From contig CAZSIJ010000011.1 in NCBI GenBank assembly GCA_964607065.1, positions 58,459 to 82,458 on the forward strand: a stretch of 24,000 nt of DNA. Reading direction: 5' to 3'. Of the stretch, positions 2,003 to 18,571 are shown piece by piece (the stretch's first letter is position 1; each line of letters begins with the position of its first letter). The DNA is from an uncultured Desulfobulbus sp. Lineage in GTDB: Bacteria; Desulfobacterota; Desulfobulbia; Desulfobulbales; Desulfobulbaceae. The translations under genes were made by a program, and so were the position numbers. Under the pieces are notes generated by a model. That model ran no database searches, had not been told where the DNA came from, and saw only the letters and a program-made list of their open reading frames with translations.

Positions 2003-2028
2003 GGTCTTCGCGCTCCCGAGCTTGTTGA

Positions 2029-3123: not shown

Positions 3124-3254
3124 CTGCTACCTCCTTGATGTACAGTTACACTGCTAAGTACGCATGACGACCAGACACACCTCAACTATAAAAAACGGTA
3201 CAAAATTCTTTTGTGTGAGTTGTATAAAAGCAAAAACAAACCTGTGCAACATTT

Positions 3255-3260
3255 ATTATA
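3255..3260 (-). promoter_or_regulatory. Candidate sigma70 -10 hexamer (perfect TATAAT on minus strand) for the group-1 hydrogenase operon
   Basis: The complement of 3255-3260 reads TATAAT, about 130 nt upstream of the small-subunit ATG. No good -35 is present (CTAATT/TAATTG at 16-17 nt). It is bracketed by the inverted repeat GTGCAA(3244-3249)/TTGCAC(3263-3268). Confidence 0.3.
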
Positions 3261-3263
3261 TTT

Positions 3264-3282
3264 TGCACAATTTGCACAATTA
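3264..3282. promoter_or_regulatory. 19-nt motif TGCACAATTTGCACAATTA (copy 1), candidate operator shared with the hypF upstream region
   Basis: It is 17/19 identical to 7648-7666 in the same orientation. It lies 141-159 nt upstream of the small-subunit ATG. It is part of a cluster of four TGCAC/GTGCA half-sites (3244-3248, 3264-3268, 3273-3277, 3283-3287), including the perfect palindrome TGCAC-AATTA-GTGCA at 3273-3287. Confidence 0.4.
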
Positions 3283-3426
3283 GTGCAGTTTGCTTATGTG
3301 CGAGTGAGATAATTGATGAGCCAAATGAGTTTACGGAGGTCAGGGTAAGCGATGTGATATTTAGGAGTAATTTATATGGATGGCGGAGCACGGTGCGATT
3401 GATGCTATAAAGGCTGCCAGGGTGTC

Positions 3427-3455
3427 TTATTGCAAGCAATAATGAATTATTCATT
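3427..3455. promoter_or_regulatory. Two abutting perfect AT-rich palindromes (possible upstream regulator binding sites)
   Basis: TTATTGC-AA-GCAATAA at 3427-3442 and AATGAAT-T-ATTCATT at 3441-3455. They lie about 305-330 nt upstream of the group-1 hydrogenase small-subunit start, inside the 680-bp intergenic region. Confidence 0.3.
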
Positions 3456-3801
3456 GGAAAGATTTGCAGGCGGGGAGGGGTATCTGCTGGTTTAAACTGC
3501 GACCAGAGCTGGGCAATAGAGAAAATGGTGCCGAGGTCTAATGAGAAAAAGCGAGAACGAATGTTCGATTGAGGAACAAACTGATAAAGAAAGGAAATGG
3601 GAGAGGGGCAAGCGCCAGGATGTTCTGGCGTGGTTGCGAAAATTTGAACCCTCGCTTCTAGGAATACTGGCCAGGCCCCCGCTGGGGCGAAGCATTTTAG
3701 AGCGGGGCAGGTTGTAACAAGTTGCGCTGAATGGAAAGGGCGGCTTGTACGGGAGTTTTGCGTCACATCATGAGTGAGTTTTATTTCGCATCATTATAGG
3801 A

Positions 3802-4929
3802 TCATGGCGTTGTTTTGTCTTTTGCAACCTTGCGGCGGCTTTCCTTCTGGCCGCTGTAGCGGTAATAGGCGGCGCAGGTCCCTTCGTTTGAAACCATACA
3901 GGGGCCGACCGGTTGCAAAGGGGTGCAGGCGGCACCATAAAGGGGACAATCCGGGGGCAGGAGGCGACCTTTGAGAATGTCGCCGCATCGGCAACCTTTG
4001 GTCTCACTCGTAGGTTGTAGCTGGATTTCAAGTCGTAGCATACCGTCAAAGCGGCTATATTTCTCCCGTAGTACCAGGCCGCTGCCAGGAATGACCCCAA
4101 GACCGCGCCATTCGCTGTCGGCCGGCATAAAGACCTCGTTAATCAACGCTAGCGCTTTGCGGTTGCCTTCAGGGCTCACAACTCTGGTGTAGCAGTTGTC
4201 GACCCTGGGCGCGCCTTCCTTGTGTTGTCGGATCAGGCTAAGCAGGCCGGCGAGGATGTCGGCGGGTTCGAAACCGGCGACGGCGCATCCCAGGTGGTAT
4301 CGTTCGGCCATGGGCAGGTAGGCGTCGCTGCCTATGATGGCACTGACATGGCCGGGGCAGAGCAGGCCGTCAACCTGCAGTTCCGGGTCGGCCATTAAGG
4401 CCTCCAGTGCCTGGGGCATGGTCTTGCTGGCGGCAATGATCATAAAATTGGAGATCCCCAACCGTTCGGCCTGTAAAATGGTGGCAGCAATGGTCGGAAT
4501 GGTCGTCTCAAAGCCAATAGCAGGAAAGAGGACTAACCGTTCCGGCTCCTGTTGCGCCAGGGTCAGTGCGTCCATGGGCGAGTAGACGATTTCCACTCGG
4601 GCTCCTCCGGCTCGTGCTGTAGCCAGTGATCCATTGCGGCCTGGAACACGGATCAGGTCGCCGAAGGTAGCGATGGTAACCTGGGGCAGGTTTGCGGCAG
4701 CAACAAAGGCGTCGATGTGACTGGCTGGGGTCACGCAGACCGGACACCCGGGACCGGAGAGCAGGGTCAGGCCTTCGGGCAGCAGGGAGCGGATGCCATG
4801 GCGGAAAATCGACATGGTGTGGGTGCCGCAGACCTCCATGATCCGCAGGGGCCGGACCAGGCTGCGTCTGATTTCTTCCACCAGAGGTGCGGTGATTGCC
4901 CGGCTACGGAATTCGTCGGCGCACTTCAT
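3802..4929 (-). CDS. hypD: Hydrogenase maturation factor HypD (Fe(CN)2CO scaffold)
   Basis: 375-aa ORF: MKCADEFR...MEVCGTHTMSIFRHGIRSLLP...LLSGPGCPVCVTP...GFEP...C-terminal GPCMVSNEGTCAAYYRY. Its ATG overlaps the hypC stop (ATGA at 4926-4929). Confidence 0.93.
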   Translation of the reverse strand: MKCADEFRSRAITAPLVEEIRRSLVRPLRIMEVCGTHTMSIFRHGIRSLLPEGLTLLSGPGCPVCVTPASHIDAFVAAANLPQVTIATFGDLIRVPGRNGSLATARAGGARVEIVYSPMDALTLAQQEPERLVLFPAIGFETTIPTIAATILQAERLGISNFMIIAASKTMPQALEALMADPELQVDGLLCPGHVSAIIGSDAYLPMAERYHLGCAVAGFEPADILAGLLSLIRQHKEGAPRVDNCYTRVVSPEGNRKALALINEVFMPADSEWRGLGVIPGSGLVLREKYSRFDGMLRLEIQLQPTSETKGCRCGDILKGRLLPPDCPLYGAACTPLQPVGPCMVSNEGTCAAYYRYSGQKESRRKVAKDKTTP

Positions 4930-5204
4930 TCCGGTGCTCCAGGCAAGCGGCCTTGATGTCCAAGCGTTTCGGCCATCTGTCGCATGAGTTTGAGGTTGTA
5001 CTCGGCATCTTCAACAGTCAGGGTGCGAATGGCAAATCCAGCATGAATGATGACATATTCGCCGACCAGTGGGATTCGGTCAGCCATTTCCAGTCGGATT
5101 TCCTTGCGGATGCCGTCACTTTCAACCAGGGCGACGCCGGGATCGAGCAGCTCATCGCTCCCGCCTCTAATTTCGACAACTTGCATTGGGATAGCTAGAC
5201 ACAT
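4926..5204 (-). CDS. hypC: Hydrogenase assembly chaperone HypC/HupF family
   Basis: 92-aa ORF that begins with the diagnostic MCLAIPMQVVEI (essential Cys2). An AGGAGGT SD is present. Its start overlaps the hypF 3' end by 10 nt. Confidence 0.9.
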   Translation of the reverse strand: MCLAIPMQVVEIRGGSDELLDPGVALVESDGIRKEIRLEMADRIPLVGEYVIIHAGFAIRTLTVEDAEYNLKLMRQMAETLGHQGRLPGAPE

Positions 5205-7519
5205 GGGGGTGTACCTCCTATAAAGGCCTGGCCAAGACTGATGCCACCGTCGTTCATCGGCACCAATTCGCCGGTGAACACGTTGAATTGGTGTTGTTGC
5301 ATCGTGTCGATCAGTGTTTCAAAAAGCACTTTGTTCTGCATGCAGCCACCGGATAGGACTATATCGGTCATCTGCGTCCGTTGCCTCAAAATTTTAAGCA
5401 GAGCCACCAGAGATTCGGCCAGCCAGGAGTGAAAACGACGAGCTATGATCGGGATGGTGATCTGGTTGGCAATGTCGTGAAGGATCAAGGCGGCAAGCGG
5501 TGCGGAATCGATGATCTGGAGTCCCGCTTCTTCGCGGAGCGTGATCGGATAAAAGGTTGCGTGCTCCTTGTGATCGGCAAGGGTGGCTTGGTGTTCCAGC
5601 AACATGGCAGCCTGTCCCTCGTAATCGCTGTACAGGCAAAGCCCGAGCAGGGCTGCAACTGCATCAAAAAGCCGGCCGCAGCTGGTGGTCTGTGGGCAAT
5701 TGAGCCTTTTGGTCATCATTGCGCCCAAGATTTGTTTGTTTTCAGGAGGGATGACCAATAGGGCCGGCGGTTGGTTGGCCTCGGTAAAGGCCTCCATGCC
5801 CAGTCCTTGATAGAGCAGGGCTAGGGCCATGCGCCAGGGTTCCTGAGCGGCCCGATCACCTCCCGGCAACAGGAGGTGCGACAAACGGCCGAGGCGCTGG
5901 AAACTATGTCTGTCGGCGAAATAAATCTCTCCGCCAAAGATTGTGCCGTCGGTACCGTAGCCGCTGCCGTCGAGCACAACACTGAGGACGGGGCCTTCTA
6001 AACCCTGTTCAGCCAGCACCGCTCCGGTGTGAGCATGATGGTGTTGAACTTCGTGGCATGGGATTTTCAGGTTCTGAGCATAACGGGTACTGATGTAGTC
6101 GGGATGGAGGTCACAGGCCGTTTGCTCTGGCGTAACTTCGAGCACTGTCTGGAGATGCTGAATGCTTTCCCGGTAAAAATAAAAATTTTCCGCATTGGTC
6201 AGTTCGCCGATATGCTGGCTGATGTAGGCTTCCTGGTTGCGAACGATGCAAAAACTGTTTTTCATTTCTGCGCCGCAGGCCAGGATGTCGGCGGTCGGCT
6301 GGCGTAAAAGGATGGGAACCGGCGAATAGCCGCGTGCCCGGCGCAAAAGTCGGGTCGTGCCGGCCATAATCCGGGCGACCGAGTCGTCAACCCGAGTAAC
6401 GATATCCCGATCGTGCAGCAGAAAAAAATCAGCGAGTCCGTTCAGTCGTCTCAACGCCTCGTCGTTATCGGTGCAAATCGGCTCGTCGCTGCGGTTGCCA
6501 CTGGTCATAACCAGAGCAAGCGGAGCTCGGGGTTGATTAAGCAGGAGATGGTGGAGCGGGGTGTAGGGCAGCATCAGCCCGAGTATGCCAAGTCCCGGAG
6601 CCAGTCCGTCTGTTAAGTCCGCAGCCATCAGGCGATCGAGCAGGACAATGGGGTGTTCCGGTGCGGTGAGCAGAGCAGCTTCCTCTGGTGTAATGCGGCA
6701 AAAACGGGCGGCTGTGGCCAGATCTTTGACCATGATTGCCAAGGGTTTCGAGACGCGATTTTTGCGTTGTCGAAGCGTTGCCACCGCTGCAGCTGATCCG
6801 GCATCGACAGCCAGATGAAATCCCCCCAGCCCCTTGATTGCTACTACGTGGCCGTCTGCTAGGGCGCTGGCTGCTAAGGTCAGGCAGTCTCCCGCAATCA
6901 AATGGCCATCGCCATCATGCCAGCTCAGACGTGGTCCGCATTGAGGGCAGGCGTTGGGTTGGGCGTGGAAGCGGCGATCCATAGGGTCGTGATATTCTTG
7001 ATTGCAGGCTTCGCACAGGGGGAAGAGGCGCATCGAGGTGTTGGGCCGGTCGTAGGGGATCTGCTCGACAATAGAAAACCGGGGGCCGCAGTTGGTGCAG
7101 TTAGTAAAAGGGTAGCGGAAACGACGGTTGCTCGGTTCAAGGATTTCGACCAGGCAATCGTTACAGATGGCAATGTCCGGGGCGATCTGGGTGCTGGGGC
7201 GCGCCCCTTGACTGCTCGGCAAAATTTGGAAGTCGGCGGCGGTAAGTGGTTGCTCGGTCGTCTGTACGTCTAGGCGGATGATCCGTGCGGATGGTGGAGC
7301 TTCGGTTCTCAGGGCAGCAATGAAATCGTCCAGGGTTGCCTCAGTGCCGCGGATGCGTATGTGGACGCCGTCACTGTTGTTGGCAACCGTCCCTGTCAGG
7401 CCGTGCCGGTGGGCCAGTCGGTACACAAACGGACGAAATCCCACTCCTTGAACAATCCCGTGAATGGTAATGATCAGAGTTTTCGTCTGCCTATCTACGA
7501 GGTTTACGGCCAGGGTCAT
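5195..7519 (-). CDS. hypF: Carbamoyltransferase HypF
   Basis: 774-aa ORF. It has an N-terminal acylphosphatase-like domain (IHGIVQGVGFRPFVYRLA). Two zinc-finger pairs are present (CNDC...CTNCGPRFS, CEAC...CPQCGPR). These are followed by a YrdC-like and a Kae1/HypF C-terminal domain (GGCMQN...). Confidence 0.93.
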   Translation of the reverse strand: MTLAVNLVDRQTKTLIITIHGIVQGVGFRPFVYRLAHRHGLTGTVANNSDGVHIRIRGTEATLDDFIAALRTEAPPSARIIRLDVQTTEQPLTAADFQILPSSQGARPSTQIAPDIAICNDCLVEILEPSNRRFRYPFTNCTNCGPRFSIVEQIPYDRPNTSMRLFPLCEACNQEYHDPMDRRFHAQPNACPQCGPRLSWHDGDGHLIAGDCLTLAASALADGHVVAIKGLGGFHLAVDAGSAAAVATLRQRKNRVSKPLAIMVKDLATAARFCRITPEEAALLTAPEHPIVLLDRLMAADLTDGLAPGLGILGLMLPYTPLHHLLLNQPRAPLALVMTSGNRSDEPICTDNDEALRRLNGLADFFLLHDRDIVTRVDDSVARIMAGTTRLLRRARGYSPVPILLRQPTADILACGAEMKNSFCIVRNQEAYISQHIGELTNAENFYFYRESIQHLQTVLEVTPEQTACDLHPDYISTRYAQNLKIPCHEVQHHHAHTGAVLAEQGLEGPVLSVVLDGSGYGTDGTIFGGEIYFADRHSFQRLGRLSHLLLPGGDRAAQEPWRMALALLYQGLGMEAFTEANQPPALLVIPPENKQILGAMMTKRLNCPQTTSCGRLFDAVAALLGLCLYSDYEGQAAMLLEHQATLADHKEHATFYPITLREEAGLQIIDSAPLAALILHDIANQITIPIIARRFHSWLAESLVALLKILRQRTQMTDIVLSGGCMQNKVLFETLIDTMQQHQFNVFTGELVPMNDGGISLGQAFIGGTPPCV

Positions 7520-7675: not shown

Positions 7676-7930
7676 TTACCCCTCACCCAAAGCTTGGCGC
7701 TGAATTTCACGATAACGTTTGGAGTGGACGATCTTTTGTTTTTCCAGATCTTCAATTTCTTCCCGGCTCAAATGGATAAGCCCGCAGACTGGACAGGAGA
7801 GATCCATGTCATCGTGAGCGGCGCGCTGTTTGAGTTCGTCGGCTGTCATGTGTCCGACATAGCCGCAGGCACAGTTCGGTGCTTCGACCCTGACTACTTT
7901 TCGTTGTTTTGTTTTGTTATTCTCGTTCAT
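7676..7930 (-). CDS. Small hypothetical Cys4 (CxC...CxxC, zinc-ribbon-like) protein with charged helical C-terminus
   Basis: The ORF track gives 7676-7975, which uses a TTG start. The first ATG (complement of 7928-7930) gives 84 aa: MNENNKTKQRKVVRVEAPNCACGYVGHMTADELKQRAAHDDMDLSCPVCGLIHLSREEIEDLEKQKIVHSKRYREIQRQALGEG. It is on the same strand as its neighbours, wedged between the Sec hydrogenase large subunit and hypF. There is no obvious SD, I recognise no family, and the start is uncertain. Confidence 0.5.
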   Translation of the reverse strand: MNENNKTKQRKVVRVEAPNCACGYVGHMTADELKQRAAHDDMDLSCPVCGLIHLSREEIEDLEKQKIVHSKRYREIQRQALGEG

Positions 7931-7983: not shown

Positions 7984-9429
7984 TTAGCGTTGCAAAATCC
8001 TGATGCTTCGGCCCTGATGGTCATAGAGGGTGACTGCCAATGCCAGACCGCCATCCAGGCGGTGCGTCGCGCAGGAAATTCAGGGGTCATAGGCGCGGAC
8101 CGCCATCTCGATCCGGTTGAGCATCTCTTCGTCAAATTCACCGTCGCAGATCAGGCTGGAAGCTGCCTGATGCACGCTCAGGTTCATTGGCGCGATATTG
8201 TGGGTGGTGCCGACGATGAGATTGGCCTTGGTGATACAGCCATTGTCATCAGTGGTGTAATCGTGGATCAAGGTGCCACGAGGCGCTTCAACATGACCAA
8301 TGCCCCGACCTGCCTGTGGTGTAGCCGGATTGCGTATGGCAGGGTCCGTGATAGTATCGTCTGCCAGTAGCTCCAAGGTCCTTTCACAGGCGTAAACCAG
8401 TTCAATCAGCCGGGCCCAGTGGTACAACAGGGTGCCCTGGGCGGGGCGTCCAAATTGTTCACGAAAAGCCTCCAGTTCTGCCTGGGCCCTTGGAGTGGCA
8501 ATGCGGTCGCAAACATTGAGGCGGGCCAGAGTGTTGACCCGGTAGATGCCTTTGGGTGCTGCTGGATCGAGGGAGAAACCCTCGCGCCAGGATTTGGCAT
8601 AGACCATCTTGGCTGTGGACCAAGGCTCGACATGTTCGCTCAGATGCAGTTCATAGTCACTTGCCGGGAAATCGATAGATTCGCCATTGGGATGCATCAA
8701 CCGCAGCAAGCCGTCGTAGAGTTGCAGGTTTCCCTGCGCATCGACCGCACCCAGAAAGCCGGTAGTGATGGCGCCCAAGGATTGCATCTCCTCCCGAAAG
8801 CGGCCGAAGACTTTGTCTTTCGCATAGTCGAGGGCAAAGGATGCAAAATCGAGCAGCAGGGCGGCGTCTCGTTGCAACTCTTGGCGTTCCTCATTGCTCA
8901 TCGGTTTGGCAAAACCGCCGACCACTCCGGCTACCGGATGGATGGCCTTGCCGGCAAATCGCTCCAGCATCATTTGCCCCAGTTGCCGCATGTGAACGAC
9001 GCGGGCCGCCAGTTCCGGGTCCTTGCGCACCATGCCCATGATATTGCGGACCGAATAGTCGCTGTCCGGGCCAAGAACAAAATCAGGAGCTGCAAGAAAG
9101 AAAAAGTGAAGGATTTTGTCGTGGATGTGCGCCATAACCTGGCAGAGTTCACGCAATCGGTGGCCGGCTGGGGTGGGGGTAACCCCGAAACAGCCGTCAA
9201 TAGCCTTTACTGCTGCCAGGTGATGCATCCAGGGGCAGATGCCGCAGATTCGGCTGACAATCCGTGGAATCTCCTCAGCTGGCCGCCCGATAACGAACTG
9301 CTCGAAACCACGAAGAGCAGCGATCTCCACACGGGCATCACTGACCCGGCCGCTATCATCTAGGTGAATGGCGATGCTGGCGTGGCCTTCAATTCTGGTG
9401 ACAGGATGGATATGGATAACCTGCGCCAT
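7984..9429 (-). CDS. mvhA: [NiFeSe]-hydrogenase large subunit, MvhA/VhuA-like (group 3c), selenocysteine encoded by in-frame TGA at 8080-8082
   Basis: The likely true start is the ATG at 9429 (MAQVIHIHPVTRIEGHASIAI...RICGICPWMHH); the 51 upstream codons in the track ORF are not hydrogenase-like. The track ORF ends ...VRAYDP at a TGA. Reading through on the minus strand gives DP-U-ISCATH-RLDGGLALAVTLYDHQGRSIRILQR-TAA (stop at 7984-7986). That is the canonical DPCxxCxxH Ni site with Sec at the first Cys, plus a 25-aa protease-cleaved tail. The product is 481 aa with Sec at residue 450. Confidence 0.85.
8044..8066 (-). promoter_or_regulatory. Candidate bacterial SECIS hairpin directing Sec insertion at UGA 8080-8082
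   Basis: The minus-strand RNA reads 5'-ACCGCC-UGGAU-GGCGGU-3' (8063->8047), a perfect 6-bp GC-rich stem with a G-containing 5-nt loop. After one C/C mismatch it is extendable by G-U and C-G pairs. The stem starts 16 nt after the UGA, a spacing compatible with known bacterial SECIS elements. Confidence 0.5.
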
Positions 9430-9472
9430 GATTACAAAATCCTCAGAGTGGTAAGGGAGCGGTTTCCCTGCG

Positions 9473-10393
9473 TCAGTTCTTCTTTCGGGCCGGCTTAAGC
9501 AGGCCGTGAGCGCCACTGAAGCGCAACAGCGATTTGCGGTCAACAAGAGCACGGTGATCGATACCGTTGCTGGCCAGCGCATTCATCATGTCCAGAAGTT
9601 GATTGCCGCCGGGTTGTACCGGCCCATAACAGCCACGACAGGGAACACGAGCCTGAAGGCAAAGGGGTGTACCTTTGCCGCCGCAGCCACCGGCGGTAAC
9701 CGGTCCCATGCAAACCAAGCCCTGTTCAAGCAGGCATTGCATCCCGCTGATCGGCTGGTCGCGGTCATAGTCAGCATTGTGCAGAAACCGTTGGACTGGG
9801 GCCATTTTTTTCTTCCCCTCCCGGATAGTAGGGCAGGTCTCGCAGACGCTCTTCTGTGGCAGCTGGAATGCTTCCTTGTTGACCAACGCCTTGATAACCG
9901 CCCCAATCAATTGCGGTTGGGGCGGGCATCCGGGCAGGCTGACATCGACCCTCACTTTTTCATCGACACTGTAGACTCGGTCAAGAAAAGCAGGGGCAGA
10001 TGAGGGGGATATCTCATTATCGACGGTGCCGGCTGTAAATACGGTGTGCAGTGTGTCGGCTGTCGACCATTGATTGCGCATCGCTGGAATACCGCCGTGG
10101 GTGGCGCAGGTGCCAAGCGCAATCAGGGTCCGACATTGTTTGCGCATCTCTTGCAGCACCTGGAGATGCTCCTGGTGGGCAACGCCGCCGGAGACCAGGC
10201 CGATATCCGCTTCAGGCAGCGAGAGGGGTGCTCCTTCTCCCCGCTGACCCCCATATTTATGGTCCATAAGCAGGGGAAAATGAACAATTTCTGCCTGATC
10301 GAACAAATCAAGCAATTGCTCCCCCCAATTGAGCATGGAAATTTCACACCCGGAACAGGCATGCAGCCATTCAAAGTTGAGCTTGGGTTTCAT
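9473..10393 (-). CDS. mvhG: [NiFe]-hydrogenase small subunit, MvhG-like (cytoplasmic, no signal peptide)
   Basis: 306-aa ORF: MKPKLNFEWLHACSGCEISML...ALGTCATHGGIP...LPGCPPQP... plus C-terminal Cys clusters (CETCP, GGCGGKGTPLC..CRGCYGP). No Tat motif is present. It lies directly upstream of the large subunit. Confidence 0.9.
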   Translation of the reverse strand: MKPKLNFEWLHACSGCEISMLNWGEQLLDLFDQAEIVHFPLLMDHKYGGQRGEGAPLSLPEADIGLVSGGVAHQEHLQVLQEMRKQCRTLIALGTCATHGGIPAMRNQWSTADTLHTVFTAGTVDNEISPSSAPAFLDRVYSVDEKVRVDVSLPGCPPQPQLIGAVIKALVNKEAFQLPQKSVCETCPTIREGKKKMAPVQRFLHNADYDRDQPISGMQCLLEQGLVCMGPVTAGGCGGKGTPLCLQARVPCRGCYGPVQPGGNQLLDMMNALASNGIDHRALVDRKSLLRFSGAHGLLKPARKKN

Positions 10394-10417
10394 CAGGTTT
10401 GCTCAATCTCATAGTAT

Positions 10418-10825
10418 CTAGTCCGCCGATTGCTCGGATTGTAACACCGCCAACCGTCCGCACATGTTGCGGAAGGCCTCGACCAACCGTTCCGGTTCGG
10501 CCGAGGAAACCCAGGTCAGTTGGAATTGCTCGGGCGCGTAGCCAAGGTCATCAAGGGTGTCGGTAATCACTTCCGCCCTGGCCAGGGCCATTTCGTTGCC
10601 TTTGATATAGTGACATTCACCGAGGTGGCAACCAATGATCATGACCCCTGCCGCCCCTTGCGCCAGTGCATGCAGGACCATCTCCGGATGAACCATGCCT
10701 GAGCACATGACCCGGATGATCCGTATCGATCCGGGGTATTGCAGGCGAGAAATACCAGCCAGGTCGGCGGCGGCATAGGAGCACCAGTTGCAGCAGAAGG
10801 CGATGATTTTCTGTTCCCGGTTCAT
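10418..10825 (-). CDS. mvhD: MvhD-like [2Fe-2S] hydrogenase delta subunit / HdrA adaptor
   Basis: Start is the ATG at 10825 (MNREQKIIAFCCNWCSYAAADLAG...RVMCSGMV...IIGCHLGECHY), 135 aa, with the typical MvhD Cys pattern. The ATG overlaps the TGA of the upstream hdrA-like gene (ATGA at 10822-10825). The track ORF adds 10 unlikely N-terminal codons. Confidence 0.88.
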   Translation of the reverse strand: MNREQKIIAFCCNWCSYAAADLAGISRLQYPGSIRIIRVMCSGMVHPEMVLHALAQGAAGVMIIGCHLGECHYIKGNEMALARAEVITDTLDDLGYAPEQFQLTWVSSAEPERLVEAFRNMCGRLAVLQSEQSAD

Positions 10826-13800
10826 AGCGATGCCTCTGGAGAAAGCTCCGCGCACAGGGCAGCGTCAATCTGGGCTTCGATTTGATCATAGGTGAATCCG
10901 GAGATGGTGATGCCCCGCTTCGGACAGGTCCCCTGGCAGATGCCGCAACCTTTGCACAGGGCCTGGTTTATGGTCACTGATTTTTTGACTGAGCCATCCT
11001 CGTCCTGGTAGGTTACCAGGTGGATGGTCAAGTAGGGGCAAACATCAATACACAAGCCGCAGCCATCGCAGCGTTCCGGGTCAACCAGAGCTGTGTTGGG
11101 TTCCAGAGCGATTTCTTTGCGGGCCAGGAGACGACCGGCCTTGGCAGCGGCTGCTAGAGCCTGTGAAATCGACTCTTCCAGAGGTTTGGGATAGTGGGCC
11201 AGTCCAGCAACGAAAATGCCGTCGACGTTAAAGTCCATCGGCCGAAGCTTAGCGTGGGCTTCCTGGAAAAAGCCATCGGCGTTCAAGGGGAGCTTAAACA
11301 TGTTGGCCAGTTCCACGGCCTCCTGGCTGGCAAGGGTGGCAGCCGCGAGCACCACCATATCGGCCTTGATTTCCAGCGGCCTGTGGAGGACATGATCCCA
11401 GACCTCGACCAGTACTCCAGTATCTTCACGGCTGATCTTCGGCGGCCCGTGCAGTTCATAGTTGATGAAGATGATGCCCAATTCACGGGCCTGGTTGTAG
11501 ATGCGTTCGCGTTGGCCGTAGGTGCGGATTTCGCGATAAAGGATGTAGATCTGCCGCGAAGGTACTTCTTTTTTTAACTTGATGGCGCTTTGAATCGAAT
11601 GGGTGCAGCAGGATTTCGAACAGTAAGGTCGCTCCTTGTTACGAGAGCCGACACACTGAATGAAGACAAAGGATTTGCCATTTGCCACTCTGGTCTCATT
11701 GTGCATGTGCAGTTTGTCGAACTCAATCGATGCGACCACCTTGGGGATTTTACCGTATTCGAATTCCTCGGGAATATAACGTTTGGCGCCAATGGTAATA
11801 ATCGTAGCACCGTGTTCGATCGTTTGTTTCCGGTTTGTGCCGGTTTTGATAGTGGTGTTGAAGTTGCCGACATGGCCGGTGACCTCTATGACCGTGCTGT
11901 TATAGAAAACCTCGATGTTCGGGTTGTTCTGTACCTCTTCGTTGAGTCCCTTGAGGAATCGGGGCACATGTTCGCCGTTCCAGGTCTGAAAAAGATGGAG
12001 GGCATTACCGCCCAACTGCGACGATTTTTCGATAAGATGGATGTGGAATCCTTGTTGGGCAAGATTCAGCGCTGAGATCATGCCGGCTACGCCTCCGCCG
12101 ATGATCAGGGCCGAGGGGGTAATCGGGATCCGCAGTGGTTTGAGAGCTGTTTGGGTGGCTACCTTGACTACCGCCATCTTGACCAGATCCTTGGCTTTGC
12201 GGGTGGCTGTTTCCGGCTCCTGATTGTGTACCCAGGCATTCTGGTTGCGGATATTAGCCATCTCAAACAGATATTCGTTGATTCCTGCAGATTTAAGCGT
12301 CTTGCGGAACAGCGCTTCATGAGTTCTCGGGGTGCAGGCAGCAACCACAATCCGGTTCAGGCCATTATCCCTGATCTGTTGCACGATGAGATCCTGGGTG
12401 TCCTGGGCACAGGTGAAAAGATTACGCCCCACATGCACGACCTGCGGCAGGGTTTTGGCATAGGCGGTGAGTTCCTCGACATCGATGACGCCAGCGATGT
12501 TGGTGCCGCAATGACAGACGAAAACTCCAATCCGTGGTTCCTGGAGACGTACATCGAGTTCAATCGATGGGGGGGTCGTTTTAGTCCTGGTGTTGCGGGC
12601 GCTCGACAGCAATGACGATACACTGGCTGCGGCTGCGGAACCGCCAATCACCGATTGGGGAATGTCGCGCGGTCCGTTAAAAGCGCCACAGGTAAAGATA
12701 CCTTTTCTGGAGGTGTGGACCGGCATGAAGGCTGAGATAGAGGCAAACCGGTCCGGGGTCATGTGGATACCGATGGTCTCAGCCAATTTGACCATTGAGT
12801 CCGGTGTTTCCAGGCCGACCGAAAGGACTACTAGGTCAACGATCTCCTCGACCTGTTTACCCTGAGGGCTGATGTAGTGAAGGCGCAGGTCACCCTTGGT
12901 CCCTTTCGGTTCCACCCCATGAATGCGGGAACGGATAAATTTAACCCCGTATTCTGAGCGGGCCCGTTCGTAATAGCGGTCAAATTCTTTGCCTGAGGTC
13001 CGCATGTCCATGTGGAAAATGGAAACTTCGAGCTCTGGATTGACCTCTTTCGCCATGACCGCTTCCTTGATCGCATACATACAGCAGACCGAGGAGCAGT
13101 ATTCATTGTTGCAGCGGTTTTTATCTCGGCTGCCGATGCATTGCAGAAAAGCTATCTTCTTTACCGGTTCACCATCGGAGGGACGGGTCAGAATGCCGTC
13201 GGTAGGGCCGTTTGGGGAGAGGTAGCGCTCGAATTGGAGCGAGGTGATAACGTTGGGATAGATGCCATGTCCCCAGACCTTGGCTTTGGACGGATCAAAG
13301 GTTTGGAACCCAAGAGCCATGACCACCGCTCCAACCCGGAGTTCGTGATCATGTTCCTGGTCGTCGAAGTTGATGGCTCCAGGTGGACAGATCTCTGCAC
13401 AGATGCCGCAGGTTCCCGGTTGGTTTATTCTCAGGCAGGCCTCAGGGTCAATCTGGTATTTGAGCGGCACAGCCTGAGGATATTTAATATAGATGGCTTT
13501 GCGTTTGGCGATGTTGCTGTTGAAGGAATCGTCGACACTTTTGGGACACTGAGCGCTGCACTGGCCGCAGGCGATACACTTGCTGGTGTCGACATAGCGG
13601 GGATATTTCCGGACCCGAATGGTGAAGTCACCTGCCTGGCCACTGATATCGACCACCTGAGAAAGGGTCATGATGTTGATGTTGGGGTGGCGTCCGCATT
13701 CGACCAGTTTTGGGGCGATAATGCACATTGAGCAGTCGTTGGTAGGGAAAACCTTGTTGTATTGGGGCATGGCCCCGCCAATGGCACCGGTTTTCTCCAC

Positions 13801-13920
13801 CAGGTAGACCAGGAATCCTAAGTCAGCGAGATCCAAGGCTGCCTGCATCCCGGAGATGCCACCGCCCACCACCATGACTGCACCGCTCATAGTATTGTCA
13901 GACATGTGTTGTCGTTCCAT
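10822..13920 (-). CDS. hdrA: Double-module HdrA-like flavoprotein (1032 aa; two FAD-binding modules, HdrA N-domain in the middle, inserted and C-terminal ferredoxin domains)
   Basis: - Residues ~14-435 are an HdrA thioredoxin-reductase-like module (VVGGGISG, FPTNDCSMC, inserted ferredoxin CIACGQCSAQCP...CGICAEICP, CIGSRD...CSSVCC).
- Residues ~462-590 resemble the HdrA N-terminal domain (IGVFVCHCGTNIAGVIDV).
- Residues ~603-935 are a second FAD module (IIGGGVAG, CVGSRNKERPYCSKSCC) that lacks the TNDCSxC motif.
- Residues ~945-1005 are a 2x[4Fe-4S] ferredoxin (CDGCGLCIDVCP, CKGCGICQGTCP).
- The start codon choice (13920 versus downstream ATGs) is uncertain because no SD is present. Confidence 0.88.
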   Translation of the reverse strand: MERQHMSDNTMSGAVMVVGGGISGMQAALDLADLGFLVYLVEKTGAIGGAMPQYNKVFPTNDCSMCIIAPKLVECGRHPNINIMTLSQVVDISGQAGDFTIRVRKYPRYVDTSKCIACGQCSAQCPKSVDDSFNSNIAKRKAIYIKYPQAVPLKYQIDPEACLRINQPGTCGICAEICPPGAINFDDQEHDHELRVGAVVMALGFQTFDPSKAKVWGHGIYPNVITSLQFERYLSPNGPTDGILTRPSDGEPVKKIAFLQCIGSRDKNRCNNEYCSSVCCMYAIKEAVMAKEVNPELEVSIFHMDMRTSGKEFDRYYERARSEYGVKFIRSRIHGVEPKGTKGDLRLHYISPQGKQVEEIVDLVVLSVGLETPDSMVKLAETIGIHMTPDRFASISAFMPVHTSRKGIFTCGAFNGPRDIPQSVIGGSAAAASVSSLLSSARNTRTKTTPPSIELDVRLQEPRIGVFVCHCGTNIAGVIDVEELTAYAKTLPQVVHVGRNLFTCAQDTQDLIVQQIRDNGLNRIVVAACTPRTHEALFRKTLKSAGINEYLFEMANIRNQNAWVHNQEPETATRKAKDLVKMAVVKVATQTALKPLRIPITPSALIIGGGVAGMISALNLAQQGFHIHLIEKSSQLGGNALHLFQTWNGEHVPRFLKGLNEEVQNNPNIEVFYNSTVIEVTGHVGNFNTTIKTGTNRKQTIEHGATIITIGAKRYIPEEFEYGKIPKVVASIEFDKLHMHNETRVANGKSFVFIQCVGSRNKERPYCSKSCCTHSIQSAIKLKKEVPSRQIYILYREIRTYGQRERIYNQARELGIIFINYELHGPPKISREDTGVLVEVWDHVLHRPLEIKADMVVLAAATLASQEAVELANMFKLPLNADGFFQEAHAKLRPMDFNVDGIFVAGLAHYPKPLEESISQALAAAAKAGRLLARKEIALEPNTALVDPERCDGCGLCIDVCPYLTIHLVTYQDEDGSVKKSVTINQALCKGCGICQGTCPKRGITISGFTYDQIEAQIDAALCAELSPEASL

Positions 13921-14010
13921 GGAATTTCATGGTGAGAGATCGTCTCAACCAGTTTCGTGGTCGTGTTTCGGGAGCAGCCTCTTGTCGTGTATGCCGGTTT
14001 ATGTTCATGG

Positions 14011-15468
14011 TTATCGCGGTTCCCCTGGTTTGACTAAGGCCTTTGCCACCAGTTCCCACAGGAATTGAACCTCGATATTGAGGTTGAATTCACGGTTCAG
14101 CGATTTTTCCAGTTGGTCTTTGCAGTTTTGGCAGGAGGTGATAACCAGCTTCGCTCCTGATTCACTGATTTGCCTGGCCTTGATCCGGCCATGGAAGACC
14201 CGTTCGGCTCCATAGGGGCTGGCCCAGGCTCCGCCACCGGCGCCGCAGCAGTAATTCTCCTCACGATCGGGGATCAGGTCGACATATTTCGTGCAGCAAG
14301 CCTGGGTCAACGATCGGGCCTCCTCAAAATAACCGTGGCCAAAGGTCTTGAGCGATTTTCTGCCGTAGTTGCAGGAGTCGTTAAACGTCACCAGTTTATT
14401 GTGAACAACTGGTGCGAGGGTAATTCGTTTTTCATGGAGATATTCGAGCAATAGGTCGAAAACCGTATAGATTTTGAACTGATTGAGAGATTCGGGAAAC
14501 CAGTGTTCCAGGGCGTACCGGGTGGCGTAATAGGCATGGCCGCACTCGGGCAAAAGCAGTGCCGTGCAGTTGAGCCGCTCTATGTTGTCGATGATCCGTT
14601 CGGCCATGGTGCGCATGGCACTGTAGTCGCCAGAGTAAACCCCCCAGTTGACCCCTTCCCAGTTTTCCGAAGAGATAGTCCACGATTCACCGGCAGCATG
14701 GAAAATCTTCCACCACCAGGTCAGGCTTTCAGGTTCGGCGAAGGGTAGTTTGGAGTTGACGGTCACAAGCATTCTGGCGCCACGGACATCGATAGGGGTG
14801 ATGAAACCGGGACAAGATGACTCGGCCAATTCCTCGCCCAGTTCTTTTAAGAGAGTGATGAAGTCGTCCTTGGGGATGCCGAGGTTGTTTCCTTTTTCAA
14901 GACAGGTGACCACGCCTTTCTGGATGGCAGCGGGTACTTTTTCTCGATCGCGGCGGGAACGGATACGGCGCATCAATTGTAATATCTCGACATTCATCGG
15001 ACAGACAACTTCGCACTTACCGCACATGGTGCATTTCCATGGCCAGTCGCTGGCAAGCAGTTCTTCATCAAGGCCAAGGAAGGCCATGCGAATGATTTTG
15101 CGTGGATCGAGATCGTCAACCCCCGATATTGGGCAGGCTCCGGCACAAGAGCCGCAGGTTAGGCAAACATCGGCCATGGCCGGCTGGTTGTAGAGTGGGT
15201 TGGTCTTGAGTCCCAGGCGTACCGAAGGGAGAGCGCTTTCATTTTTCGGTAAAGAAGGAGCTTCGGTCTTGCTGTTGGGTTCCGGTGCTATCCGGGGTTC
15301 CCTGCCAAATTTATCACAGAGCCGTTTGTAATCCTCCCACTGGATCTGGTATCGTCGTCCCGGGCCTTCCTGTGCCGGCAATGCGCCCGAATTAATCCAG
15401 TTGCGGATGGTGTTGCGGTGTACTCCGAATTCTTCAGCCAGTTCATTGACTTTGATCTCGTAGATCAT
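14011..15468 (-). CDS. HdrD-like heterodisulfide-reductase-type protein (HdrC-like 2x[4Fe-4S] + HdrB-like CCG domain) with N-terminal excisionase/MerR-type helix-turn-helix
   Basis: - Start is the ATG at 15468, which overlaps the protease stop (ATGA at 15465-15468), giving 485 aa.
- Residues 1-50 (MIYEIKVNELAEEFGVHRNTIRNWINSGALPAQEGPGRRYQIQWEDYKRL) match the pattern of excisionase-family HTH domains.
- A ~45-aa Pro/Ser-rich linker follows.
- Next come CLTCGSCAGACP...CTMCGKCEVVCP.
- The CCG region has NDSC...YCCGAGGG...SCQNC. A first CCG-like segment is degenerate (PECGH). Confidence 0.85.
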   Translation of the reverse strand: MIYEIKVNELAEEFGVHRNTIRNWINSGALPAQEGPGRRYQIQWEDYKRLCDKFGREPRIAPEPNSKTEAPSLPKNESALPSVRLGLKTNPLYNQPAMADVCLTCGSCAGACPISGVDDLDPRKIIRMAFLGLDEELLASDWPWKCTMCGKCEVVCPMNVEILQLMRRIRSRRDREKVPAAIQKGVVTCLEKGNNLGIPKDDFITLLKELGEELAESSCPGFITPIDVRGARMLVTVNSKLPFAEPESLTWWWKIFHAAGESWTISSENWEGVNWGVYSGDYSAMRTMAERIIDNIERLNCTALLLPECGHAYYATRYALEHWFPESLNQFKIYTVFDLLLEYLHEKRITLAPVVHNKLVTFNDSCNYGRKSLKTFGHGYFEEARSLTQACCTKYVDLIPDREENYCCGAGGGAWASPYGAERVFHGRIKARQISESGAKLVITSCQNCKDQLEKSLNREFNLNIEVQFLWELVAKALVKPGEPR

Positions 15469-15998
15469 GGAGCGGTTGCCTCCAAGGTGGTGTAACGGGC
15501 GACAATTCGTAAAATCCGGTGACAAGCGTCTTGCACAGCAGCAAGCATGGTCGACGAGAGTCCTGGCGCAATGTGGTCAGGGATGACAGCGGTTTGGGCG
15601 ATCAACAGCACTACCTCAATGCCGGTCTCTTCCTGGAGCTCTCTGAGTAAATTGACCGTAGGAAACTGGTGCAGGGAAAAATCGTGGATTTTTTTCGCTG
15701 CAATTGTCGAAGGCGCGCATTCCAGGACTACGCCCGGAGCGCCGCTCTGTTGGTGACCCGCATCAATAATAATGAGCAGTTCCGGCCGCAGGCTGGGTAG
15801 CATGAGGTAATCGAGCAGGTATTCGCGGATACCGGTGCCGGCATCAACGAGGTAGACCCCTTCCGGCAGGTTGAGGGGTTGTAGCGCTTCGATAACCGCC
15901 GGGCCAAAGCCGTCATCACCAAGCAGGACGTTGCCGCAGCCGAAAATAACCACAGGCGGTGCAGGTGTCACAGGATGGGTATTGTGCGAGATGTGCAT
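15465..15998 (-). CDS. Hydrogenase maturation endopeptidase (HyaD/HybD/FrhD family)
   Basis: 177-aa ORF with VVIFGCGNVLLGDDGFGPAVIEAL...YLVDAGTG...LIIIDA...HQF. This is the metal-binding E/D...D...H pattern of the C-terminal processing proteases. It is the first gene of the hdr/mvh cluster. Confidence 0.88.
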   Translation of the reverse strand: MHISHNTHPVTPAPPVVIFGCGNVLLGDDGFGPAVIEALQPLNLPEGVYLVDAGTGIREYLLDYLMLPSLRPELLIIIDAGHQQSGAPGVVLECAPSTIAAKKIHDFSLHQFPTVNLLRELQEETGIEVVLLIAQTAVIPDHIAPGLSSTMLAAVQDACHRILRIVARYTTLEATAP

Positions 15999-16234
15999 AG
16001 TGTTTCAACTATGGCATTATTTTTCGTGAGTATGCAAGAGGAAAATAGGTCTTGTCCGCTTCCAATCGTTGACGCGGTACCGAGGATGGAGGCCGATTTT
16101 TGGTATTGCTGGGGCAGTAGTTAAAAGCATACTGTTATTGTCACTTGTTCCGATGGGAGAGTGTGGTGGAGCCAATACGAACAAGCTAAGGGCATGTGTC
16201 CTCTGGTTTTTTCCTTTTTGCCGCTTGGGATGAG

Positions 16235-16352: not shown

Positions 16353-17093
16353 ATGTTCAAGCCGACACCTGTAACTCTGTTTATTCCATGCCTGGTGGAT
16401 GCCTGTTTTCCCGAGGTGGGGGATGCCATGGTCAGGGTTTTTGATCGGCTCGGAATTTCCCTTGCCTATCCCGAGGGGCAGACCTGTTGCGGCCAACCAG
16501 CTTTCAACAGCGGTTATCGGCGCGAGGCGACTGTTGCGGCACAGCGATTTATCGAGTTGTTTGCCAGGGCGGAGGTCATTGTCTGCCCGTCTGGTTCCTG
16601 CGTTGCCATGGTTCGCCGTAACTATCCCGAACTCTTTCAAGATGATCTTGAGATGCTGGAACGTTCTGGTGATATAGCTAGAAAGACTTTTGAGTTTACC
16701 GAATATCTGGTCGATGTTCTGGGTGTAACTGATATCGGTGCTGTCTTTTCAGCAAGGGCTACTTACCATGACTCCTGCCACTTGATACGTACCTTAGGAA
16801 TCCGGGAACAACCTCGGCAACTGCTCCGCCATGTCCAGAATCTGCACTTGATTGAGATGGTCAGCTCCGATACCTGTTGCGGCTTCGGCGGCACCTTCAG
16901 TGTCAACTATCCCGATATCTCCCTGGCTCTGGTGGATGATAAAATTGACAATATCCTGAAAACCGGCGCCGACACTGTGGTGGGCTGCGACGTTAGCTGT
17001 CTGATGAATATTCGCGGCCGAATGACCCGAAGAAAGGAAACCCTTCAGGTGTTACATATTGCCCAGGTGCTGGCTTCTGCGGGGCAAGCATGA
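16353..17093 (+). CDS. lutA: LutA/YkgE-type Fe-S oxidoreductase (two CCG domains), lactate utilisation
   Basis: Start is the ATG at 16353 with an AGGA SD 6 nt upstream: MFKPTPVTLFIPCLVDACFPEVGDAM...GQTCCGQPAFNSGY...DTCCGFGGTFS..., 246 aa. The 64 upstream codons in the track ORF are not LutA-like. Confidence 0.88.
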   Translation: MFKPTPVTLFIPCLVDACFPEVGDAMVRVFDRLGISLAYPEGQTCCGQPAFNSGYRREATVAAQRFIELFARAEVIVCPSGSCVAMVRRNYPELFQDDLEMLERSGDIARKTFEFTEYLVDVLGVTDIGAVFSARATYHDSCHLIRTLGIREQPRQLLRHVQNLHLIEMVSSDTCCGFGGTFSVNYPDISLALVDDKIDNILKTGADTVVGCDVSCLMNIRGRMTRRKETLQVLHIAQVLASAGQA

Positions 17094-18571
17094 AGGCTTC
17101 TGGTCCGCTTTCGTATAACGAAGCTGCCCATGAAGGACTTGCCAACCCCTGTCTGCAGCGCAGTCTGCGCGGCCTGCAGGCGCATTACGGCAAAGGGGCG
17201 CTTGCTGCCTGGCGCTCTCTCCCTGACCAGAGCTTGCGGAGCCGGGTCAAGGCCAGGCGAATGCAGACCCTGGCCCATCTCGACCAGGCGCTCGAACAGC
17301 TGGCCGATGGTATCCGGGCTCGAGGCGGCCAGGTTTTTTTTGCGGCAACCGCTTCTGAAGCCAACGAGTATGTTCGTGATCTGGCCCGCAAACATAATGT
17401 GCGACGGGTGGTTAAGGGTAAATCAATGCTCTCCGCCGAGATCGGTATCGACGCTGCTCTCGCTGCCGACGGCGTCGAGGTGGTTGAAACCGATCTGGGG
17501 GAATATATCGTGCAGATGGCTGGTAGTACCGCCTCGCACATAATAGCCCCCTGCATTCACATGGACCGGCAGCAGATCGGCCGTCTTTTTGTAGAACATC
17601 TGCACATTCCTTATACAGATGATCCCCCCACGCTGACCCGGGCTGCTCGCAAGGCTCTCCGACAGCATCTGCTTACTGCCGACATGGGGCTGACTGGCTG
17701 TAATTTTGGCTGTGCCGAGACCGGCCAGGTCACCTTGGTCTCCAATGAAGGCAATATCCGCATGGCCACCACCATGCCGAGGCTGCATGTTGCCCTCATG
17801 GGAATGGAGCGGATCGTTGCCACCCTGGATGACCAGCGCGAGCTGCTGCAACTTCTCACTCAAGGGGCAGCGCTGCAGAAACTTTCCACCTATGTCAGTT
17901 TTGTTGGAGGACCGAGCCGGGAGGGTGATCCTGACGGTCCGGATGAGTTCCATCTGGTGATCGTTGACAACGGCCGTTCCCGCATTCTGGCTGATCCGGA
18001 ATTTCGCGAGGTGCTGGCCTGCATCCGCTGCGGCGCCTGTCTCAACATCTGCCCGGTCTACGGACGGATTGGCGGCCATGCCTATAGCTCCCCCTACAGC
18101 GGGCCCATCGGTGCTGTCGTCACCCCGCTGCTTGCGGGGATTAACCGGCATGCCGATCTCTGCAAAGGCGAGACGCTATGCGGGGCCTGCCGGGATGTCT
18201 GCCCGGTGGCAAACGACCTGCCCAGGATGCTTGCGGCTCTGCGGCATAAACTGGCCTACGGCGATCCAGGCTGGCAGGTGCGGCCGCATAACCGGTTTGA
18301 AGCCCTTTGTTTGAAGGCTTGGCAAAAGATTGTCGTCAGTAAAGTTTGTTACGAGATATTCCTTAAGTTATTTCGAGCATTGCAGCGACCTTTTATCGGA
18401 CCACAAGGGGTGATCGGCCGTCTTTACGGGTTTGGTGGTGGTTGGACCCAAGGCCGCGATCTGCCGCCGCTGGCTCCTTCTTTTTTCCGTGAACGATGGC
18501 GAAATCTTCATAGTAAAAACCGAGAGAATTGTGCAGGATTGTCCGCAGAGAAACAGCCTGATGAAGGATAA
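17090..18571 (+). CDS. lutB: LutB/YkgF-type iron-sulfur protein (LUD domain + 2x[4Fe-4S])
   Basis: 493-aa ORF with CIRCGACLNICPVY...CGACRDVCPV and a LUD-type N-terminal region. Its ATG overlaps the lutA stop (ATGA at 17090-17093). Confidence 0.9.
   Translation: MKASGPLSYNEAAHEGLANPCLQRSLRGLQAHYGKGALAAWRSLPDQSLRSRVKARRMQTLAHLDQALEQLADGIRARGGQVFFAATASEANEYVRDLARKHNVRRVVKGKSMLSAEIGIDAALAADGVEVVETDLGEYIVQMAGSTASHIIAPCIHMDRQQIGRLFVEHLHIPYTDDPPTLTRAARKALRQHLLTADMGLTGCNFGCAETGQVTLVSNEGNIRMATTMPRLHVALMGMERIVATLDDQRELLQLLTQGAALQKLSTYVSFVGGPSREGDPDGPDEFHLVIVDNGRSRILADPEFREVLACIRCGACLNICPVYGRIGGHAYSSPYSGPIGAVVTPLLAGINRHADLCKGETLCGACRDVCPVANDLPRMLAALRHKLAYGDPGWQVRPHNRFEALCLKAWQKIVVSKVCYEIFLKLFRALQRPFIGPQGVIGRLYGFGGGWTQGRDLPPLAPSFFRERWRNLHSKNRENCAGLSAEKQPDEG

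Follow-up and report, generated by a model that had tools for sequence, protein, structure and literature searches.

A conserved Desulfobulbales operon predicted to encode a hydrogenase-fed, BamDE-type electron-bifurcating complex

A minus-strand operon of an uncultured Desulfobulbus sp. probably encodes a soluble, H2-dependent complex for flavin-based electron bifurcation, in which a group 3c [NiFeSe] hydrogenase (MvhA/MvhG) would be joined through the adaptor MvhD to an Hdr module of the BamDE type. The operon lies within 24,000 nucleotides of contig CAZSIJ010000011.1 (GenBank assembly GCA_964607065.1; positions 58,459 to 82,458, forward strand), a stretch that we call the window. The cluster best fits the description of a hydrogenase-fed bifurcating module of the BamDE type. 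This reading is based on gene content and domain architecture, on residues conserved among orthologs, and on synteny across genomes. Clusters of this type are common in Desulfobulbales, which comprise many sulfur-cycling members, and have been partly anticipated in the literature: genome papers report that relatives of Desulfobulbus, like other sulfate reducers, carry mvhADG beside hdr genes, and they also report a soluble HdrD beside HdrA/MvhD. In the literature we found no biochemical study of the cluster, and no description of the BamE-type nature of its HdrA or of the conserved 84-amino-acid (aa) protein encoded at its end; a full-text search likewise returned no description of an HdrD fused to a helix-turn-helix (HTH).

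Gene order and conservation of the cluster

Open reading frames (ORFs) of the window were listed and translated, and domains were assigned with Pfam and NCBIfam profiles. The translated operon starts with a HycI/FrhD-like hydrogenase maturation endopeptidase (177 aa; 15465-15998; PF01750, 56.5 bits against a cutoff of 23; TIGR00072, 102.6 bits against 47.45), a member of the HycI/HybD fold family. It is followed by an HTH-bearing HdrD-like subunit (485 aa; 14011-15468; Pfam HTH_17, Fer4_8/17, and CCG), a fused asymmetric double HdrA (1,032 aa; 10822-13920; mapped onto HdrA chain 5ODC_A), and the [2Fe-2S] adaptor subunit MvhD (135 aa, with cysteine and not selenocysteine [Sec]; 10418-10825; PF02662, 164.4 bits). 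The hydrogenase genes come next, encoding an MvhG/VhuG-type small subunit (306 aa; 9473-10393; PF01058, 105 bits; VhuG model, 185 bits) and an MvhA/VhuA-type [NiFeSe] large subunit (481 aa including Sec; 7984-9429; VhuA, 443 bits; VhuU, 41 bits), and the 84-aa protein closes the order. Assignment to group 3c [NiFe(Se)] hydrogenases of the Mvh/Vhu type draws on the metal-binding motifs of MvhA, on VhuA as its top match, and on the presence of MvhG and MvhD alongside.

The first-pass annotation, made from the letters and their translations, had described the first six of these genes as the parts list of a bifurcating hydrogenase complex, and the profile searches place every gene where it had been read and recover all components of that list. 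Its compact wiring was also exact on re-reading. Start and stop codons overlap as ATGA at 15465-15468 (protease stop, HdrD-like start) and 10822-10825 (HdrA stop, MvhD start), and the remaining intergenic gaps of 24 nucleotides (nt) between mvhD and mvhG, 43 nt between mvhG and mvhA, and 90 nt between the HdrD-like and hdrA genes span the 24- to 90-nt range given before. A GGAGG sequence stands 9 to 13 nt 5' of the start codon of the HdrD-like gene.

Scanning one genome per species yielded 198 relatives of the HdrD-like protein. We examined 80 loci, nearly all from Desulfobulbales with some from Syntrophobacteraceae, and mapped all window proteins onto them; 52 loci carried sufficient flanking sequence. 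The nearest relative of the HdrD-like protein is 97% identical and belongs to an uncultured metagenome-assembled genome, and named Desulfobulbus species follow at 72 to 85%. An identical seven-gene order, including the downstream small gene, recurs in 45 of the 52 informative loci, which come from different species, and this arrangement is far beyond chance. The protease-first order, initially noted as atypical, is indeed unusual relative to Escherichia coli or methanogen operons, yet within this lineage it turns out to be the conserved norm (45/52 loci).

In the other seven loci the protease, MvhG, and MvhA are jointly missing, and the HdrD-like protein, fused HdrA, and MvhD are retained. Since this trio persists without a hydrogenase, it forms the invariant core of the cluster, and the hydrogenase is a detachable input module. 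The fused HdrA gene directly follows the HdrD-like gene in all 79 loci that extend past the latter, and the three core genes are adjacent in every sufficiently long locus. The protease travels with MvhGA, all three being present in 45 loci and none in 7 of the 52-locus set; outside that set, a single metagenome locus, L083, keeps the protease without MvhGA. Loci lacking MvhG and MvhA are L024, L033, L046, L049, L053, L066, L078, and L083. At L046 the core is accompanied by an 897-aa FdhA/NuoG-like gene (assigned from its N-terminal sequence only), together with a second MvhD and an HTH-less HdrD-like gene; this formate dehydrogenase/NuoG-like gene supports the idea that the input module may be exchangeable. 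We detected neither hdrB nor hdrC in the window or beside the cluster in the 80 loci, in agreement with the earlier view that one fused HdrD-like protein takes the place of the separate pair. AOR-type and NuoEFG-type genes are likewise absent from the window and the examined loci.

Subunits and selenocysteine sites

The fused HdrA aligns to the solved HdrA 5ODC_A in three pieces. Residues 16 to 392 correspond to HdrA 147 to 517 (thioredoxin reductase [TrxR] unit 1 with its inserted ferredoxin domain), residues 459 to 614 to HdrA 1 to 156 (the N-terminal Fe-S domain plus the first part of TrxR unit 2), and residues 833 to 1019 to HdrA 465 to 647. The protein thus has two TrxR-like domains that bind flavin adenine dinucleotide (FAD) and one each of the inserted ferredoxin, N-terminal, and C-terminal ferredoxin domains; unit 2 has neither the inserted ferredoxin domain nor the Cys194/Cys197 motif. 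What was first called a double HdrA does therefore hold two TrxR units, but it is a permuted asymmetric fusion and not two complete HdrAs. Among 64 orthologs, 28 cluster cysteines are invariant, enough for seven predicted [4Fe-4S] clusters, and the inserted ferredoxin domain is strictly conserved. Lys285 of unit 1, at the position of HdrA Lys409 beside the flavin N5, is invariant in the same 64 sequences, as is its equivalent in unit 2, Gln777.

The HdrA Cys194/Cys197 pair corresponds to a Cys63-Ser-Met-Cys66 motif in TrxR unit 1 (13723-13734, minus strand). The codon of Cys66 (13723-13725) reads TGC in the window, as in all of the Desulfobulbus group, and TGA, encoding Sec, in 39 orthologs from other genera; the loci aligned at this codon are covered by L025 to L083. 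As cysteine alternates with Sec at this position, Cys66 is probably redox active. The window organism has Sec in MvhA and cysteine in HdrA. At L081, L082, L083, and L084, public gene calls cut the Sec-containing fused HdrA into pieces of 59 to 71 aa and 847 to 948 aa, and the same calls end MvhA early at its TGA. Database entries for these HdrA and MvhA proteins are thus systematically fragmented.

In MvhA, the N-terminal metal-binding motif reads RICGIC (RxCGxC), and the C-terminal one, at the DPCxxCxxH position, reads DP-U-ISCATH, where the U codon is an in-frame TGA (8080-8082, minus strand). This TGA is present in 52 of 52 orthologs and is followed by an open frame of 25 codons here and about 25 to 30 codons across the set; a 25-residue C-terminal extension thus follows the His of the motif. 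Rfam at its gathering thresholds finds no selenocysteine insertion sequence (SECIS) in the window, nor any other RNA family, and we therefore judged the downstream hairpin by alignment. An RNAalifold consensus of the 52 sequences gives a SECIS-like hairpin with a CGCC-UGGAU-GGCG core (8048-8062, minus strand), 21 nt past the U of UGA and conserved in all 52. Its stem pairing is retained by paired substitutions (CGCC/GGCG to CACC/GGUG, combining an R-to-H change, CGC to CAC, with a synonymous GGC to GGU) in five loci (L030, L035, L037, L041, and L042). The open frame and hairpin conserved in orthologs bear out the earlier reading of this TGA, which by these alignments is a genuine selenocysteine codon.

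The HdrD-like subunit was compared across 39 family members with 51 to 88% identity. It begins with an excisionase/MerR-type winged HTH (aa 1 to 55; 15304-15468, minus strand; PF12728 [HTH_17], 35 bits against a cutoff of 27), in which the recognition helix HRNTIRNW and Cys51 are invariant. Cys51 (15316-15318) sits at the end of the HTH, directly before a flexible linker (about aa 56 to 95; 15184-15303, minus strand) that shows no conservation and varies in length, with a predicted local distance difference test (pLDDT) score below 50 for residues 62 to 82. Next comes an HdrC-like region (14989-15174, minus strand) matching the HdrC chains 9sfi_E and 5odc_C (E values of 5e-15 to 4e-14), whose two cubane [4Fe-4S] motifs (C102, C105, C108, and C112; C146, C149, C152, and C156) have all eight cysteines invariant. 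The C-terminal CCG domain (residues 360 to 453; 14110-14391, minus strand; PF02754, 35.7 bits) is intact and HdrB-like in fold, and its motif C366-X38-C407C408-X35-C446xxC449, plus C391, is invariant in the 39 homologs. In the N-terminal CCG-like half, Cys301 is the sole remaining ligand, and the alignment thus upholds the single canonical CCG motif noted at first. The C-terminal domain is predicted to hold a single non-cubane [4Fe-4S] cluster.

An AlphaFold (AF2) model of this protein has a pLDDT of 83.7, falling below 50 in the linker. Its top Foldseek match is EtfD of Mycobacterium smegmatis (9OJN; E value of 2.5e-13, 459 aligned columns, 18% identity), and further matches to LutA, HdrB (about 1e-5), and HdrC point toward an HdrC-plus-HdrB fold. 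The HTH part of the model matches the DNA-binding domains of RacA and BldC. The nearest NCBIfam models are HmcF, TmcB, and DsrK, all far under their cutoffs. A full HMMER scan of 1.84 billion representatives returned fragments and a single full-length representative with the HTH, P0087 (56% identity). The complete relatives that come after it have 34 to 40% identity and 400 to 440 aa; they align from query residue ~100 and thus lack the HTH, which by this comparison is specific to the clade. Several of these HTH-less relatives adjoin HdrA/MvhD-type genes. One of them (37% identity) is directly followed at L086 by a DsrC/TusE-family gene (3701-4018) that has the penultimate Cys and is missing the second conserved Cys, a single anecdotal case.

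The small 84-aa protein (7676-7930, minus strand), in no known family, was delimited by synteny and homolog alignment. Its gene follows mvhA in 45 of 45 full loci and mvhD in three of the seven hydrogenase-less loci. It carries the motif C22-G...H27 ... C46-P-x-C49-G..H53, then a charged helix. Its description as a Cys4 protein holds for the window sequence, which has four cysteines, but not for the family, which conserves three Cys and two His (CG..H ... CPxCG..H); conservation does not extend to the first Cys of the CAC triplet. None of 109 homologs has a Pfam domain, and the AlphaFold model (mean pLDDT of 59.5) is too low in confidence for fold classification.

Electron flow, competing explanations, and genomic surroundings

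From these observations we infer that the proteins assemble into a complex, in which direction electrons flow, and which acceptors they reach. After nickel insertion, the protease would cleave the C-terminal 25-residue extension off its substrate MvhA, and H2 would be oxidized at the Ni-Fe-Se site. Electrons would then pass through the MvhG clusters and the [2Fe-2S] cluster of MvhD to the C-terminal ferredoxin domain of the fused HdrA, and on to the FAD of TrxR unit 1, the sole unit with both the Lys and the Cys-x-x-Cys(Sec) pair, where bifurcation is expected. The high-potential electron would leave via the unit 1 [4Fe-4S] cluster and then cross the HdrD-like subunit, through its two cubane clusters and its single non-cubane cluster, to an external acceptor. 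The low-potential electron would travel from the cluster of the N-terminal domain to the single inserted ferredoxin domain and then to ferredoxin. TrxR unit 2 would serve as a structural, non-bifurcating pseudo-partner replacing the second HdrA of the methanogen homodimer, and the tethered HTH could either dock a partner protein or bind DNA.

The cofactors coenzyme M and coenzyme B serve methanogenesis, and to our knowledge the Desulfobulbales and Syntrophobacteraceae hosts have neither. As these hosts are not methanogens, we do not expect CoM-S-S-CoB to be the substrate. For CCG proteins in sulfate reducers, the partner usually proposed is a DsrC-type protein, and the acceptor would most plausibly be a disulfide or trisulfide of such a protein, or alternatively an electron-transferring flavoprotein (ETF).

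Several points weigh against this scheme. No dsrC, etf, or ferredoxin gene is conserved beside the cluster, and a DsrC-like query has a match less than 10 kb away in only 2 of about 90 loci; the earlier remark that the oxidant is not obvious holds. The proposed mechanism assigns no role to the conserved HTH. The HdrA2, VhuA, and VhuG profiles all score below their equivalog cutoffs, VhuA reaching 443 bits against a cutoff of 800, and the comparison with BamD and BamE was made to their published description and not by sequence alignment. Finally, electron flow could run in reverse in vivo.

In that reversed form, the same complex would be a confurcating, H2-evolving hydrogenase that draws on reduced ferredoxin together with a reduced thiol or protein as donor while cells ferment or grow syntrophically. 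In principle, enzymes of flavin-based bifurcation can run both ways, the sequence holds nothing that fixes the direction, and the cluster is found in Syntrophobacteraceae and in propionate-fermenting relatives of Desulfobulbus. However, methanogen [NiFeSe] enzymes of the Vhu type operate in H2 uptake, and a periplasmic uptake-type hydrogenase operon within the window suggests an H2-consuming lifestyle. We regard H2 evolution as possible, if on the unlikely side.

The HTH raises the question of regulation. Tandem direct repeats are the kind of site bound by BldC/Xis-like domains, and in non-Desulfobulbus genera, Desulfocapsa and Desulfopila among them, TTGTGC(A) tandem direct repeats precede the operon in 40 of 74 regions, whereas shuffles gave 10.7 ± 3.3. 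Present in two or three copies spaced 9 to 11 bp, they lie ~40 to 200 nt 5' of the first operon gene, at loci that include L025, L026, L032, L034, L036, L040, L043, L051, L075, and L080. The window and all of the Desulfobulbus group are without such repeats despite an identical recognition helix, and the link between HTH and repeats is therefore unproven; we found no operator common to all clades. A speculative and, in our view, doubtful extension of the bifurcation scheme gives the HdrD-like protein a dual role, as the high-potential electron exit and, through its tethered BldC/Xis-like HTH, as a DNA-binding sensor of whether its non-cubane cluster or a thiol-protein substrate (e.g., DsrC) is oxidized or reduced. 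It would thereby autoregulate the operon in a manner resembling PutA-style enzyme-regulators, and the 84-aa Cys3His protein could be another dedicated partner.

The stronger version, in which this protein is mainly a redox-sensing transcription factor of the operon and the fused HdrA, MvhD, MvhG, and MvhA work either in its absence or with a different partner, strikes us as decidedly unlikely. The HTH_17 match above the Pfam threshold, the invariant recognition helix on its flexible linker, the DNA-binding structural neighbors RacA and BldC, and the enriched TTGTGC repeats of other genera all speak for a regulator. On the other hand, every Fe-S and CCG cysteine is invariant, as expected of a working redox subunit, and the HTH-less relatives at 34 to 40% identity likewise adjoin HdrA/MvhD genes. 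The repeats are missing from the Desulfobulbus group despite its identical helix, and the fused HdrA needs a partner at its unit 1 cluster, by analogy with HdrBC and BamD.

That the flavoprotein is a mere wire in a non-bifurcating H2:acceptor oxidoreductase seems similarly improbable. One of the two flavin sites clearly lacks the hallmarks of bifurcation, but unit 1 keeps all those of a bifurcating HdrA/BamE, namely, a Lys at the flavin N5, the CxxC/Sec pair, and cluster chains that branch toward two exits, of which the inserted ferredoxin domain, the low-potential one, is strictly conserved. Least probable is that the true partners are a separate HdrB and HdrC encoded at another place in the genome, with no relation to the HdrD-like gene next door: at least one relative, Desulfocapsa sulfexigens, does have an hdrABC operon elsewhere in its genome, but that hdrBC pair has its own hdrA, the HdrD-like gene directly precedes the fused HdrA gene in 79 of 79 loci including the seven without a hydrogenase, and BamD-BamE provides a precedent for a fused HdrBC-type protein serving a fused HdrA.

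Upstream of the protease, we observe a promoter-like element, TTGCAT (16032-16037) and CATAGT (16008-16013) separated by an 18-nt spacer (16008-16037, minus strand), for which a promoter function is proposed. The block CTTGC-N~18-CATAgT-N9-ATG (window 15996-16037) is shared by 22 Desulfobulbus-group upstream regions. The element ends 9 nt 5' of the protease start codon and is followed by no Shine-Dalgarno sequence, which suggests a leaderless or near-leaderless first gene. In relatives, an ATGGCAT/ATGCCAT element overlaps the -10 region. A sigma-54 promoter was rejected, its pattern occurring in 1 of 66 regions, and a generic promoter and terminator scan performed no better than on shuffles.

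Downstream of the cluster, hypF (5195-7519), hypC (4926-5204; 70 bits), and hypD (3802-4929; 483 bits) encode [NiFe] cofactor maturation (3802-7519, minus strand; HypF assigned by sequence and synteny). The continuation of the cluster into hypFCD reported in the first-pass annotation is thus real, but the linkage is confined to Desulfobulbus-type loci. These genes sit between both hydrogenase operons, the second of which, of the periplasmic uptake type, starts at 974-3123 (minus strand) with a Tat-signal periplasmic [NiFe] hydrogenase small subunit (2029-3123, minus strand) and a Tat-signal HybA-like 4Fe-4S protein (974-2002, minus strand). The 678 bp between hypD and this operon (3124-3801; lower GC content, about 0.48) are probably noncoding regulatory DNA, since their only long ORF (3182-3766, GTG start) has no Pfam match. 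On the other side of the cluster, divergent lutA-like (two CCG domains) and lutB-like (LUD domain plus 4Fe-4S) genes occupy ~16353-18571 (plus strand), and MobB, a TPR protein, and CorA lie beyond them; 355 bp separate lutA from the protease gene. This lutAB neighborhood is common only to the Desulfobulbus group.

Significance and comparison with known systems

If the proposed mechanism is correct, the cluster would represent a natural compact, single-path Mvh-Hdr machine, with one polypeptide for the HdrA homodimer and one fused subunit for HdrBC. It would tie the recently solved BamDEF architecture to hydrogen metabolism and provide a simpler setting in which to study HdrA-type bifurcation and what the Cys/Sec pair contributes to it; the hosts include culturable sulfate reducers and sulfur disproportionators. 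Naming the acceptor, be it DsrC, ETF, or another, would address the long-open coupling of cytoplasmic H2 to ferredoxin reduction and to the sulfite reduction machinery. The clade-specific HTH on a redox subunit is an unexplained and testable feature.

Among known CCG proteins, DsrK, HmcF, and TmcB are the best NCBIfam matches of the HdrD-like subunit (E values of 4e-51, 1e-49, and 9e-39) and share its two cubane motifs and CCG domains; this family has been proposed to act on DsrC. However, the scores of 174, 169, and 133 bits compare with equivalog cutoffs of 750, 735, and 400, and these proteins belong to membrane complexes, whereas the cluster has no adjacent membrane partner gene and pairs its protein with HdrA and MvhD. 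EtfD, the top structural match (9OJN), similarly has an HdrD/DsrK-like Fe-S domain and exchanges electrons with ETF, but it is membrane anchored, much longer, and without an HdrA or hydrogenase partner, in addition to its low identity.

The resemblance to methanogen MvhADG-HdrABC (5ODC, 8RVU) is broader. Both have group 3c large and small subunits, Sec as in Vhu, an MvhD adaptor, an HdrA-type TrxR/FAD protein with N-terminal, inserted, and C-terminal ferredoxin domains, an HdrC-like dicubane region, and an HdrB-like CCG fold. In contrast to the methanogen HdrA homodimer, the operon encodes one fused asymmetric chain, a predicted pseudo-dimer, with each accessory domain present once; in contrast to separate HdrB and HdrC, with two complete CCG motifs in HdrB, it encodes a fusion with one intact CCG motif and an added N-terminal HTH. 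The maturation protease and the small Zn finger-like gene within the operon, as well as the Desulfobulbales and Syntrophobacteraceae hosts, also set it apart. The double HdrA of anaerobic methanotrophic archaea (ANME) and of Moorella MetFV-HdrABC-MvhD (PMC9012536) likewise places the N-terminal Fe-S domain and Cys197 on different units, as a built-in heterodimer. Relative to ANME HdrA3/4, however, the unit order is reversed here, with Cys197 on unit 1, which has no N-terminal domain, and thus fits the description of BamE instead.

BamDEF belongs to the class II benzoyl-CoA reductase of Geobacter metallireducens. A PDB sequence search found no entry for BamE or BamD, its matches being confined to HdrA and HdrC of methanogens, and the comparison follows the published description. 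In BamE, described as an HdrA dimer fused into one chain, the FAD at Lys280 bifurcates and the one at Gln768 does not; the protein also has a redox-active Cys59-Cys62 pair and seven clusters, E1 to E7. BamD is an HdrBC fusion in which the distal non-cubane cluster is disrupted and for which ETF is a demonstrated acceptor (bioRxiv 10.64898/2026.04.10.717634). The fused HdrA parallels BamE at each of these points, with Lys285 at the unit 1 FAD, Gln777 at the second FAD, the CxxC pair at 63/66, and 28 invariant cysteines for seven [4Fe-4S] clusters, and both systems combine an HdrD-like output subunit that has a defective distal non-cubane cluster with an MvhD-type adaptor. Unlike BamDEF, the cluster has a [NiFeSe] hydrogenase as its input and not BamGHI, and there is no tungsten BamBC output. 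MvhD is canonical, with 135 aa and Cys, whereas BamF is >100 aa longer and has Sec19, and, unlike BamD, the HdrD-like protein bears an HTH and has lost nearly all distal cluster ligands. Judged by the published description, BamDEF is the closest characterized analogue of the core, a better one than a reduced HdrABC.

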